Position numbers and translations under genes: made by a program
Shown: positions 8,653 through 40,289 of the stretch, in pieces
How positions within the stretch are numbered: position 1 is the stretch's first letter
How the letters are laid out: the number at the start of each line of letters is the position of its first letter
Notes under the pieces: model-generated
The model's input: only the letters and a program-made list of their open reading frames with translations
Databases searched by the model: none
What the model was told of the DNA's origin: nothing
Origin: a virus
Lineage: Duplodnaviria; Caudoviricetes
IMG/VR virus record: IMGVR_UViG_3300025858_000010
Coordinates: 1-64,000 of that record
Reading direction: 5' to 3' (one strand)
DNA length: 64,000 nt

Positions 8653-10050
8653 ATGGATAAATTTAGTAATAAATACATTGGTTATTTTGATATTTTAAAA
8701 AAATCTATTGTCGGTTTTGAATTCGAATTTTATACTGACAAATCATATTATAAACTACTTGAATTATTAAACAGAGAATTATCACCAATAAAAATATGGG
8801 GGCGTAGGAAATATCATTCCGATATGGAAGTCGATGAATATAATTTTAAAATAGAACCGGATTTGAGTATGGGACCAGATGGTGTTGAATTAATAACAGG
8901 TCCAATGCCTTATAATAATGCTAAACTTATTTTATTGAAAATTTTAAGCATTTTACAAAAATATGCTAAAACGGATGATAAAACTTCTATTCACATAAAT
9001 ATATCCTTTGATAAAGACTTAACTGATAAAATATTAGATAAATTAAATAGATTAAAATTAATTCTAAATTGCGATGAAGAATTAATATATAAATATTTTC
9101 CGACAAGAAAGAACAACTTTTATGCAAAAAGCGTAAAAAAACTCATTCCATTTAAGGGATATAATTATGTTAGTGATGCTATTAATATTTTAATTGAAAA
9201 TATACAATTACCAGATACTAAATATTATGGGGTTAATATTAAAGAAGCATATAATGGTAGATTAGAGTTTAGATATATTGGAGATACTGATTATCAATTT
9301 AAATCAAGAGAAATAATTGAATTGATGGATTATTTTATTTCTTTAACATGGAACAGCATAGATGAAAAATTAGATGAAGATGATATGTCAATATTAAGAA
9401 AATATCTTGATGATAATATAAATAACTTTAAAAATTTTTCAAGACTAGAAAATTTTATTGCTGAATTTCCGACTATTCAATTGGAAATTGATAAAGAAGA
9501 TGGATTTGTAATAGTCAAATCTTATTATTCAAACATATACAGCAAGATTTACGATATAATTAAAAATATTAACAATTTAAATAACTGTATATTAAATTAC
9601 GATACAGAAACCAAAATGATGGAAATTGTGGACGCGGATTTTCATACAATTTTTGATTTAAATAATTTAGCGGTTATTGATAGCAATGCAAATGGAGGAA
9701 CATATAAAGATTGCACATTTATAAATTGCGAAATTAAAAACGCTCATATACACAATTGTAAATTCATTAGTTGTGACGTTTATAATTGTAAAATGGAAAA
9801 TAATATTGTAGATCAGACGAGTATGATAAAAAATTGTTATTTTTATGGTGGTGTCCTTGATGGCGAAATGATAGGAGGTGTTTGGAGATCTGGTAAAGTC
9901 GGAGAGTTTGGCACTTTATCCGATACAACTAAAATTGCGACAGACATGGATAGTTATTTCAATACTAAAATTGATAATGAAGAAGAACCATTAAATAAAG
10001 ATAATTTCAAATCAAAAAAAATAAATCCCTTTCAACCAAGGAAATTTTAA
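8653..10050 (+). CDS. Putative amidoligase with beta-solenoid-like C-terminus
   Basis: GFEFEF, ELITGPM, SIHINIS, KYYGVN, LEFR motifs of the phage amidoligase family. Confidence 0.7.
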   Translation: MDKFSNKYIGYFDILKKSIVGFEFEFYTDKSYYKLLELLNRELSPIKIWGRRKYHSDMEVDEYNFKIEPDLSMGPDGVELITGPMPYNNAKLILLKILSILQKYAKTDDKTSIHINISFDKDLTDKILDKLNRLKLILNCDEELIYKYFPTRKNNFYAKSVKKLIPFKGYNYVSDAINILIENIQLPDTKYYGVNIKEAYNGRLEFRYIGDTDYQFKSREIIELMDYFISLTWNSIDEKLDEDDMSILRKYLDDNINNFKNFSRLENFIAEFPTIQLEIDKEDGFVIVKSYYSNIYSKIYDIIKNINNLNNCILNYDTETKMMEIVDADFHTIFDLNNLAVIDSNANGGTYKDCTFINCEIKNAHIHNCKFISCDVYNCKMENNIVDQTSMIKNCYFYGGVLDGEMIGGVWRSGKVGEFGTLSDTTKIATDMDSYFNTKIDNEEEPLNKDNFKSKKINPFQPRKF

Positions 10051-10052
10051 TT

Positions 10053-10283
10053 ATGAACGATAATACTAAGAAAAGTAGAATAAGAAGACTTGTCAAAAAA
10101 TCAGCTTTTATTGAATTATTTGGTGGTGAATGTGAAAAATGTGGTGAAAAAGATCATTTCTTATTAAGTTTCCATCACATGGATCCTAGTAAGAAACTTT
10201 TTAATTCATCTCAATTATGGGACTGTTTGCCATCTTTTTCGGATTTTATAAATAAATTCTTTATGACAAAATCCTTAGAGTGA
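10053..10283 (+). pseudogene. Truncated HNH endonuclease
   Basis: GGECEKCG...LSFHHMDPSKK; the frame then runs into the antisense strand of the DUF4186 relic. Confidence 0.6.
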
Positions 10284-10656: not shown

Positions 10657-10666
10657 ATTTTATTAT

Positions 10667-10721
10667 CACTAACGGTTGAGTGTAAAAAATCGTTTTTAAT
10701 GTTTTTTACACTTTGTTATAC
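10667..10721 (+). repeat. attC-like site 1
   Basis: CACTAAC-GGTTG-AGTGTAAAAAA-loop TCGTTTTTAATG-TTTTTTACACT-TT-GTTATAC (perfect 11-bp arms). Confidence 0.8.
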
Positions 10722-10787
10722 ACAGTATTTTGTGGGAGGTTTTGGAATAAAAATTAATTCTGAATATTTATATATAAAGACAAAATT

Positions 10788-11084
10788 ATGAGTAAAGAAA
10801 TGAGAAAATACATAGATACATTCAAAAAATTTAATTTGAATGAAAATAAATCGTTAGAAATAAAATATAGAATTGTGTCAGATTATGGTCATGGTGATAA
10901 ATCATGGATTGAAAGGGATTTAACTAAAGATGAAGTTAAAGAATATTTTGTAAAATATCGTGGTTGGTCTGAACAAGATTTTGATGAAGTTGGTATTGAT
11001 TATTTTATGAATAACGATTTCACACATTACGTTGAAATTGATAACGTTAATGATGTAGAAGATTGGAATTGGGAGGATTCTTAA
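10788..11084 (+). CDS. Cassette ORF 1, hypothetical
   Basis: Flanked by GTTATACACAGTATTTT and AAAATATTGTGTATAAC; leader MSKEMR..ID.FKKF.LNE. Confidence 0.8.
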   Translation: MSKEMRKYIDTFKKFNLNENKSLEIKYRIVSDYGHGDKSWIERDLTKDEVKEYFVKYRGWSEQDFDEVGIDYFMNNDFTHYVEIDNVNDVEDWNWEDS

Positions 11085-11093
11085 AAATATTGT

Positions 11094-11147
11094 GTATAAC
11101 GGTTGCAAATATGTTGTCGTTTTAATGCAACATATTTGATGTTATAC
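11094..11147 (+). repeat. attC-like site 2
   Basis: GTATAAC-GGTTG-CAAATATGTTG-loop TCGTTTTAATG-CAACATATTTG-AT-GTTATAC. Confidence 0.85.
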
Positions 11148-11256
11148 ACAGTACGGATTATTAAGGTAGAATGTTGATACGAAAAAACGAATAAAAACTT
11201 TCTAAAAATGTGCTGTAGAAAATTAAATTCCGAATATTTATATATAAATTAAAAAC

Positions 11257-11703
11257 ATGTGTAAAGAAATGAGAGAACAAATAGATAGAGTAAAAAACTG
11301 GAAACAGTTTTTGAACGAAAATAAATTAAACGAAGATGTTGAAATTAATAAAGATTATGTCAATAATTTTTTAAATGATTTTGGTTTTTTAATTACTCTA
11401 AATTTATCACAAGTAACAAAAATGGGCATTGATTCCAACTCAACAAACGAATTAACTAATATGATGATGAATTTGAGAAAACCAATAATTAATGGGTTAA
11501 ATTATATTGAACTAACAAAAGATACTAATAGTTTATATAATAAACCAAAATTATTGTCTGAAATATTAAATAAGATAAGAGAATTTTTAATTTATATTGA
11601 ACCAAGAATAAGTAAATTCGTAAAAGATAGTGAATATAAAATTAAATGGTTAGAAAAAATAGAAGATTTAAAAAATAGATATAAAAATATTATTTCTAAA
11701 TAG
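11257..11703 (+). CDS. Cassette ORF 2, hypothetical
   Basis: Flanked by GTTATACACAGTAC and GTATTGTGTATAAC; leader MCKEMR..ID.VKNWKQFLNE. Confidence 0.8.
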   Translation: MCKEMREQIDRVKNWKQFLNENKLNEDVEINKDYVNNFLNDFGFLITLNLSQVTKMGIDSNSTNELTNMMMNLRKPIINGLNYIELTKDTNSLYNKPKLLSEILNKIREFLIYIEPRISKFVKDSEYKIKWLEKIEDLKNRYKNIISK

Positions 11704-11762
11704 GGAGATTTTTAAAAAGTTTTTTACACAGAACTATAATTGAAATGATAATGTAGTATTGT

Positions 11763-11894
11763 GTATAACGTTTCTCAGATATATTTAGTTCTGAGATTTA
11801 ATATATAAACTTAAAATAACGAACAAAATTATGGAAAAGAACAGAATTAAGAGATTTAACGAAAACTCAGAATTGAATATATCTGATGTTATGA
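11763..11894 (+). repeat. attC-like site 3 (long; loop holds a promoter and start codon)
   Basis: GTATAAC...TCAGATATATTTAGTTCTGAG (11775-11795) pairs with CTCAGAATTGAATATATCTGA (11866-11886), then T-GTTATGA. Confidence 0.8.
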
Positions 11895-12046
11895 AACGTA
11901 TTAACGACTTAAAAGATGAATATGAAAGAATACGAAATTATGAATATGATAAGTATGATGATGAATGGGAAGCAATGGATAGAAAAAGAAGTATAGAAAC
12001 GGTTTTCTATTTATTGAATATAGATTTTAATGAGTTTGATAGATAA
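11831..12046 (+). CDS. Cassette ORF 3; first 20 aa are encoded by attC-like site 3
   Basis: MEKNRIKRFNENSELNISDV|MKRIN...; cassette ends GTTATGAAACGTATTA / TAATATGTTTCATAAC. Confidence 0.75.
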   Translation: MEKNRIKRFNENSELNISDVMKRINDLKDEYERIRNYEYDKYDDEWEAMDRKRSIETVFYLLNIDFNEFDR

Positions 12047-12052
12047 TATGTT

Positions 12053-12090
12053 TCATAACGTATGCGTATCTTTACAAGTAGAGATATTTT
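12053..12090 (+). repeat. Degenerate attC-like site 4 (left half only)
   Basis: TCATAAC followed by a TATCTTTAC/GTAGAGATA hairpin; no properly spaced GTT. Confidence 0.45.
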
Positions 12091-12411
12091 TTAAAAAATG
12101 AAATTTTTAAATACAGTGAACATGAAAAAAAATTGATGAGGATGAAAAAAATTGATTATACTAATTTTTGTGATGCTATTGCTGAAATTGCTAAACAACT
12201 TTTAAGCGCACTGATGAAAAATCGTTATTGTGAAAAAAAAAAGGATTATGCCATACGTGCCACAATAAGATAAAAGTAAAGAGAAATGGGATATACTAAA
12301 CAAGGACGAGAATATTATGATAGAATGAAATGAAAAAAAAAATTAAATAAAAAGTAGACATTTAATTCAAAAACACAAATCCATATTTTACTATATGGAT
12401 TTATGAAACTA

Positions 12412-39914: not shown

Positions 39915-40289
39915 TTAGTTTGGTAGTTGATTTATTATGCTACACTCATAGAGATATAATTTCTTATTAAAAAGAAATTTAACCATATCGTGATTAATGA
40001 TTTTAACGTCATTAAAATTGTTATAAATATCATATATAGTTTTATCACCATCAATAATATTTAAAAAATAATAATCAGGAACAATTTCATCCTTAATCAA
40101 ATTATATGTACAATTAGATAGAAAATTTTTCAATTTCATATATTTATTTTTAATATTATCATCATCAACTAAAAATTTATCAATATGATTTAAAATATCA
40201 TCAATAGAAAATTCATTTTTAGTCTCTTTTTTAGTAGATCTACCCCACCCACTAAAAAAATTTTCATTAAATTTTTTGATGTGTTTCAT
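39915..40289 (-). CDS. Hypothetical protein with leader MKHIKKFNE
   Basis: ORF with a late-promoter-like motif at ~40305. Confidence 0.65.
   Translation of the reverse strand: MKHIKKFNENFFSGWGRSTKKETKNEFSIDDILNHIDKFLVDDDNIKNKYMKLKNFLSNCTYNLIKDEIVPDYYFLNIIDGDKTIYDIYNNFNDVKIINHDMVKFLFNKKLYLYECSIINQLPN

Follow-up and report, generated by a model that had tools for sequence, protein, structure and literature searches.

Organization of site 3 and of the surrounding array

The window analyzed here is a stretch of 64,000 nucleotides (24% G+C) from a virus record of 243 kb that was judged complete. Structural genes recognized in the 243-kb genome encode a gp23-like major head protein, a head maturation protease, a portal protein, and a baseplate wedge protein. 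The head protein matched PF07068 (Gp23) with an E value of 9e-27, indicating a T4-like head module. The protease matched phrog_207 (head maturation protease; E value, 1.5e-26), and its match to Peptidase_S77, the Pfam family of T4 gp21, was under the cut-off (E value, 0.0016). The phages that carry the cassette system described below are huge phages that probably infect Bacteroidota.

Three cassettes and the sites that precede them make up the array, and their features are collected in Table 1.

Table 1. Positions of array features in the 64,000-nucleotide window
Feature	Position	Strand	Remarks
Site 1, short site, same family	10670-10727	+	
Site 2, short site, same family, without start codon or leader	11091-11153	+	
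Left core box of site 3, which is the end of cassette 2 (variable 6 nt plus TAAC)	11760-11769	+	Inverted copy of the cassette 2 start, 11141-11150
Unpaired spacer GTTTC, on the left side only	11770-11774	+	Asymmetric bulge; all sites of the family have 5-6 nt on the left and 1-2 nt on the right
Left arm, imperfect palindrome	11775-11799	+	Covaries with the right arm in 49/53 sites
Late-promoter-like box TTTAATATATAAA in the loop	11797-11809	+	About 30 nt 5' of the ATG; enrichment of the 8-mer AATATATA
Start codon and 20-codon leader	11831-11890	+	Codons 1-10 in the loop, 11-19 in the right arm; codon 20 is the core GTT
Fused ORF, leader plus body, 71 aa	11831-12046	+	Stop codon at 12044-12046
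Right arm, translated within the leader (..NSELNISD)	11862-11886	+	Inverted repeat; comparison of right-arm contexts
Cassette 3 body, 172 nt	11888-12059	+	Bounded at both ends by inverted 10-mers; encodes a two-helix protein
Right core box, GTTA plus 6 cassette-specific nt	11888-11897	+	First 10 nt of the body; GTT read as Val
Terminal inverted copy of the body 3 start (6 nt plus TAAC)	12050-12059	+	
Array-terminal element without palindrome or GTTA partner	12060-12141	+	Resembles the conserved array end by the recombinase gene of relatives (both have ACAAGTA, at about the same offset)
Possible remnant, first ~11 codons of a Xer-like recombinase gene	12142-12177	+	N-terminal resemblance, after which similarity stops

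The arms of site 3 are 25 nt each, are 88% complementary, and are separated by a 62-nt loop. Their non-Watson-Crick positions are G.T pairs on the plus strand, and the stem is extended by TAAC (11766-11769) and GTTA (11888-11891) across a bulge of 4 to 5 nt on the left. Folded as single-stranded DNA, the plus strand of site 3 reached −15.2 kcal/mol (z score, −2.9; 2 of 200 shuffles were equally good), and the minus strand reached −12.6 kcal/mol. A preliminary description of this DNA had placed a promoter box and an ATG at 11831 in the loop, and the coordinates and sequence were all verified. It had also read the loop and right arm as a leader in which GTT is a Val codon in frame with an ATG at 11891. 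Translation confirmed this reading: the leader spans 20 residues and ends in LNISDV, its GTT occupies 11888 to 11890, and the ATG at 11891 to 11893 is in the same frame. AlphaFold modeling of the 71-aa product gave a confident two-helix body (residues 17 to 35 and 45 to 61) and a low-confidence leader.

The 10-mer that opens body 3 (11888-11897) is reverse-complemented at the end of the cassette, with no third occurrence in the 243-kb genome, and the TAA of the terminal TAAC is a second in-frame stop. Cassettes 1 (10715-11100) and 2 (11141-11769) likewise end in inverted copies of their starts, each with a different 6-mer. Genome-wide, 10-nt GTTA...TAAC inverted pairs were not in excess (10, versus 6 to 19 in shuffled sequence); the inverted-pair signal in this genome is restricted to 10.7 to 12.1 kb.

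Several further observations concern the neighborhood of site 3. Short 40-nt sites have a near-invariant loop of 11 to 12 nt, TCGTTTT(T)AATG, between arms of free sequence (10690-10701 and 11117-11127 in the window, and many other loci, e.g., in contigs L004, L012, L014, and L032); this conservation suggests that something reads the hairpin tip. Each of cassettes 1 and 2 has its own internal late box and an MSKEMR..-type leader, and cassette 2 also holds an apparent decayed junction, GATGTT, at 11335 to 11340, within ..LNEDVE... One possible origin is the recapture of an older site-body fusion between short sites. Immediately 5' of site 1 (10664-10673), TATCAC plus TAAC is the commonest cassette end of the family, the partner of bodies starting with GTTAGTGATA. 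No matching body start was seen just upstream of site 1; the nearest GTTAGTGAT, at 9169 within a 465-aa ORF, is probably a chance occurrence, and the 5' border of the array looks eroded. Searches of viral contigs for synteny via the flanking 465-aa protein or the bare body gave no matches. A 76-aa ORF just 5' of the array (10053-10283) has no Pfam match and carries a Cys/His-rich motif that is nuclease- or zinc-finger-like.

Modular joining of leaders and bodies

Scanning for exact DNA matches to the right arm gave 23 viral contigs, the longest reaching 640 kb, along with more than 120 metagenome contigs whose sources were lakes, sludge, sediments, and the sea. Together, the viral and metagenome contigs yielded a comparison set of 156 distinct contexts sharing the right arm. 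A protein search with the 71-aa query returned two kinds of match, one in which the 20-residue N-terminus leads into unrelated sequence and one in which the body is the same but stands behind other leaders. The 125 bodies of at least 30 aa fell into 97 clusters without detectable mutual similarity. Even the exact IKRFNENSELNISDV form was found upstream of 12 different bodies in 12 contexts, and, conversely, the body family of the window was found behind at least 10 different leaders. The preliminary description had predicted that many unrelated sequences would follow the DV of this N-terminus and had named, as the outcome that would count against it, a peptide that always precedes one C-terminal domain. 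The 97 unrelated clusters agree with the prediction and contradict that outcome.

The ends of the bodies were compared in the same contexts. In 74 of 119 cognate cases, the 10 nt that open the body recurred downstream as an exact inverted copy, compared to a mean of 2.8 (maximum, 8) for non-cognate pairs, as had been anticipated in the proposal that each body ends in a self-complementary TAAC. Fifty different 6-mers were represented among the cassette ends. The frame following GTT was open for at least 30 codons in 125 of 135 complete cases, and the stop codon lay no more than about 11 nt from the terminal box of the cassette; in 30 cases it was the TAA of TAAC itself. A different result was obtained for the ATG at 11891, which the preliminary description had taken to be the cassette's own start codon. 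ATG directly 3' of GTT was present in only 14 of the 156 contexts; the remaining 91% had AGT, AGA, ATA, AGC, or other codons there. Homologues with the same body carry Ile, Thr, or Tyr in place of the Met at 11891, so that translation cannot depend on this ATG; this runs counter to the second outcome that the preliminary description had named against itself, initiation at 11891 only. Since the bodies are start-less and lie in a fixed frame, the site constitutes the transcription, translation-start, and N-terminal module for whatever body stands behind it.

The bodies themselves are tiny (median, 62 aa) and mostly acidic, with a net charge of −3 or below in 52 of 96 (97 representative bodies, alignment A1). 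After the Val, most start S-D-S, R-S-S, S-E-S, or I-S-S. When the 97 representatives were compared to Pfam and PHROGs, almost none could be named. A match to ornithine carbamoyltransferase in contig L118 was discarded as probably a chance occurrence of the 18-mer in a bacterial gene.

The hairpin was also examined as a structure. In the left arm, the 7 distal nt vary in concert with the opposing leader codons, with six compensating variants, and the distal arms were paired in 49 of 53 distinct sites (mean with shuffled partners, 20.8; maximum, 31). Among non-Watson-Crick arm positions, 166 were G.T on the plus strand and 4 were A.C. Of the 336 inter-cassette sites, all types included, 292 had the better fold on the plus strand. 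The fold and the G.T asymmetry together imply that the coding strand is selected to fold, as DNA or as RNA. A recognizable left arm accompanied the right arm in 107 of 148 contexts and was missing in about a quarter; the full palindrome is thus not required for a junction to be maintained or to recombine. A terminal-inverted-repeat transposon was rejected as an explanation, because only GTTA/TAAC is constant and the adjoining 6 nt vary and covary; this combination points to recognition of structure rather than sequence.

Promoter box and leader carried by the site

The central proposal for this locus had been that the site furnishes a promoter box, a start codon, and a leader to the downstream body and that the resulting expression is late. 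Both parts held up: 97 unrelated bodies stand behind the LNISDV leader, and the box and its spacing are shared with the genes for the gp23-like head protein, prohead protease, portal, and baseplate wedge. No upstream word in this genome is more enriched than AATATATA, the 8-mer of the loop box (16-fold). Late boxes lie 27 to 32 nt 5' of the ATGs of the four structural genes. Among related loops, 104 of 133 contained the late box, most commonly 29 nt from the ATG. Because the box and spacing at site 3 are the same as those at the structural genes, late expression is likely, and late transcription of the site 3 gene is well supported by analogy within the phage.

Third codon positions account for the main variation at the Phe, Asn, and Glu codons of the I-K-x-F-N-E core in 56 distinct 22-codon leaders. 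This synonymous variation argues that selection acts on the peptide and that the leader is translated. The fused ORF is intact even in contigs with decayed arms and core boxes. At other long-loop sites, whose arms are unrelated, an ATG reads through GTT into the next body in 68 cases, versus 23 and 10 for the other two frames, and short 40-nt sites such as sites 1 and 2 have no such leader ORF. The leader ORFs at other long-loop sites indicate that site-encoded leaders belong to the whole system and not to site 3 alone. Comparison of the contexts has shown modular joins, a fixed frame, a translated leader, and a late-type box.

As a side observation, many genes with late boxes outside the cassette arrays start with leaders of similar flavor, e.g., MKHIKKFNENFF.. 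(39915-40289, minus strand), and the leader class is genome-wide in this phage. A loose leader pattern was found in 72 of 253 N-termini versus 35 internal controls, and its association with the late box had an odds ratio of 2.8. Leader families retain [FLV]-x-E 6 to 10 residues upstream of the junction.

The closest functional analogue of the leader appears to be the capsid targeting sequence (CTS) of T4 internal proteins IPI to IPIII and Alt, an N-terminal propeptide cut by the gp21 protease after L/I-x-E (PMC9026906). Like the leader, the CTS is a short N-terminal peptide common to unrelated, poorly conserved small proteins, and the T4 peptide is portable to foreign proteins (PMC9026906); in this phage, too, a gp23-like head protein occurs together with a head maturation protease. 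The leader differs in having no sequence homology to the CTS, which in T4 is not located within a recombination site. By this analogy, a capsid-targeting role is suggested for the leader: it might act as a CTS-like propeptide that directs small, mostly acidic products into the prohead, where it might be cut after hydrophobic-x-Glu. Two residues ahead of its Glu, the leader carries F rather than L or I, and cleavage of the T4 type is thus not assured.

We tentatively extend this analogy to a recombinase-driven library of virion cargo, a speculative picture in which each site would combine a recombinase hairpin, a late promoter, and a cleavable capsid-targeting leader, and in which any of hundreds of small start-less ORFan bodies could be swapped in and would automatically be made late, packed in the head, and injected along with the DNA, for example, as anti-defense effectors. 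Should the leader serve to target the head, the arrays would delineate the proteins that an uncultured phage group injects, and the recombinase and site would form a compact toolkit for in-frame cassette exchange.

Candidate recombinase, mobile unit, and relation to known systems

In several relatives, the arrays stop about 50 nt 5' of a tyrosine recombinase gene on the same strand. A search that started from the recombinase gave 69 viral loci, 32 of them with enough flanking sequence; strict cassettes (80 in all) were present in the 2.5 kb upstream, on the same strand, in 31 of the 32, and no cassettes were found downstream or on the other strand in any of them (0/32). The conserved array end consists of TAAC followed by a TAT..ATATA element. 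The array-linked recombinase has 265 to 271 aa and PF00589 and PF13495 domains, and belongs to the Xer/IntI clade; its nearest solved relatives are XerA, IntI4, and XerD. It scored below the TIGR02249 and NF040815 cut-offs, aligned to IntI4 (2a3v) in two pieces, lacks the IntI additional domain, and is shorter than expected of an integron integrase.

Neither a tyrosine recombinase (PF00589) nor a homologue of the array-linked recombinase was detected in the 243-kb genome studied here. The array of this genome is therefore probably an orphan, similar to the attC clusters without integrase known as CALINs, and with the recombinase lost, its three cassettes are probably frozen in place. Five other huge-phage contigs (L227 to L231) retain only the first 19 to 38 residues of the recombinase gene; loss of the recombinase may be recurrent. 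The site was not found in the isolated phages of INPHARED, whose closest recombinases, from Cellulophaga and Polaribacter phages, are less than 40% identical.

Bodies shared between contigs were used to ascertain which unit moves. The body of the window occurs elsewhere with different sequence on both sides, the breaks falling exactly at the core boxes. Among 28 same-body pairs, both flanks differed in 17, the downstream flank alone in 9, and the upstream flank alone in 1; since both flanks differ in 17 of 28, no single crossover point fits the data. Of 32 body families, 14 had fewer upstream than downstream site types, and 2 had the reverse. The strict integron model, in which a body is linked to its downstream site, was rejected on this linkage (1/28 pairs, 2/32 families). 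The folding strand reads TAAC...GTTA in the 5' to 3' direction; the bottom strand of integron attC sites, the recombinogenic one, has this polarity, which would put cleavage at the TAAC side. Linkage, the downstream recombinase, and the polarity of the folding strand together favor a cassette composed of a site and the body that it feeds, with crossover at TAAC. The comparisons suggest that a site travels with the body it feeds more often than with the upstream cassette. Re-pairing of leader and body at GTT has nevertheless been frequent and could proceed via a reaction on the other strand or via homologous exchange in the 25-nt conserved arm.

These results lead us to propose, with a probability of about 0.7, that huge phages possess an integron-like cassette system and that site 3 is one of its attC-like recombination sites. 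The site is an imperfect palindrome that consists of 6 specific nt plus TAAC, a 5-nt bulge, an arm, a loop, an arm, 1 to 2 nt, and GTTA plus 6 specific nt. Its variable loop supplies a late promoter box, an ATG, and about 13 codons of the conserved leader, and the right arm and core GTT are translated as well (LNISDV). Bodies lacking a start codon follow GTT directly, in a constant frame, and terminate at their own final TAAC or just short of it. Exchange would be carried out by the Xer-like tyrosine recombinase (265 to 271 aa) encoded directly downstream of the arrays of relatives, with the folded plus strand as its substrate, much as folded attC is the substrate of integron integrases. The main crossover would probably lie at the TAAC side, and site plus body would usually form one mobile cassette. 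Such a cassette would mirror the integron arrangement, in that its attC stands 5' of the gene, where it can carry a promoter and a leader.

A second reading, and one that we regard as unlikely, keeps the crossover at G|TT as in integrons, so that the site would be a fixed socket of cassette 2 feeding any downstream body. The preliminary description had likewise treated GTT as the crossover, with the site owned by the previous cassette. The separability of leader and body at GTT, with 97 bodies behind one right arm and at least 10 leaders before one body, is what a socket would produce, and the core GTTA fits the integron GTTRRRY box, at which integron crossover occurs (PMC9892861). A socket also predicts, however, that bodies remain linked to their downstream sites, and the pairs and families counted above show this linkage in one and two instances, respectively. 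The recombinase and the attI-like end are situated at the downstream end of arrays, and the better-folding strand reads TAAC...GTTA 5' to 3', making it doubtful that GTT is the crossover or that the site belongs to the cassette before it.

Slightly less probable still is a reading that needs no dedicated recombinase: the module of about 100 nt would be a regulatory cassette like the PeSLs of T4-type phages, general homologous recombination would shuffle the bodies, and the hairpin would be an RNA terminator or processing site for read-through transcripts. Arrays do contain near-identical modules in multiple copies (five in L024), which would serve such exchange well, and PeSL mini-circles in RB49 and phi1 arise in this way (PMC2839356); G.T-rich stems are compatible with an RNA hairpin, and the array is kept in this genome without a recombinase. 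Against this reading stand junctions that fall exactly at TAAC even where the flanking sequences share nothing, the 6-nt complementarity of each GTTA side with its own TAAC side in 50 variants, for which homology does not account, and the tight one-sided link to a tyrosine recombinase gene. The last reading, an ordinary small-protein family with a conserved N-terminus whose inverted repeat and matching ends arose by chance in AT-rich DNA, can draw on the genome-wide inverted pairs, no commoner than in shuffled sequence, and on the modest z score of site 3 alone but is extremely improbable given the recurrence across contigs, the covariation, and the cassette-end and recombinase-locus controls.

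The attC-like reading was compared with known systems. Integron attC sites share with the phage sites an imperfect palindrome, AAC/GTT core boxes, an asymmetric spacer, arms of free sequence, and a variable loop (here 11 to ~100 nt), and integron cassettes share the complementarity of the cassette start to its own end. Co-oriented arrays of single small ORFs beside a recombinase of the Xer/IntI clade, with one strand folding better, are also common to both. Differences were found in the enzyme, in the position of the site, and in expression. An integron integrase is absent from this genome, and the enzyme of the relatives (~267 aa) does not have the additional domain with which integron integrases recognize folded attC; moreover, the phage recombinase is encoded 3' of the array, in the same orientation. 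The phage site is 5' of the gene that it serves and is partly translated, whereas the integron attC is at the 3' end of the gene. Phage cassettes are start-less and take their promoter from the site, whereas integron cassettes use a common Pc. Finally, the same phage body occurs with different sites on both sides.

The inversion systems of the shufflon (Rci) and of the tail-fiber segments (Gin/Cin) also place a site inside an ORF and join a constant N-terminal part to alternative C-terminal parts. They invert a few resident segments of one protein family, whereas the phage system exchanges unrelated bodies as cassettes between genomes.

CALINs are known in virulent phages (Qi et al. 2023, PMC9892861); as here, attC-like arrays occur in lytic phages, including Bacteroidota phages, with no integrase in the same genome. 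Those arrays differ in that they were found with integron attC models and were tested with IntI1, and no in-site promoter, start codon, or leader and no start-less cassettes were reported (PMC9892861). PeSLs (Arbiol et al. 2010, PMC2839356) resemble the phage sites as repeated intergenic modules of promoter and stem-loop that flank ORFans in plastic regions and take part in modular shuffling. The promoters of PeSLs, however, are sigma-70-like and early, and their terminator stems are GC-rich; PeSLs reach only to the start codon, without N-terminal coding, and recombine by homology, with no core boxes, cassette-end complementarity, or linked recombinase (PMC2839356). The module described here has a late structural-gene box, an AT-rich 25-bp stem, and 20 codons.

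Literature searches found no description of sites that encode a promoter, start codon, and leader in this design. Textbook integron cassettes are passive and promoterless and are read from one promoter; here, the site would itself be the module for expression and N-terminal tagging. The mobile bodies would be incomplete genes, functional only when joined to a site, and the arrangement would amount to a natural plug-in fusion vector. Such a design would explain the turnover of hundreds of tiny ORFan genes in huge phages without loss of expression, and it provides a defined sequence grammar (TAAC/GTTA, a fixed frame, and TAA at the probable crossover) together with a candidate recombinase. A minor observation concerns the core boxes: in contig L018 (6222-6311, minus-strand view), a single G separates two cassettes as TAAC-G-GTTA, without arms or loop, and this junction may represent the bare core of the recombination site.
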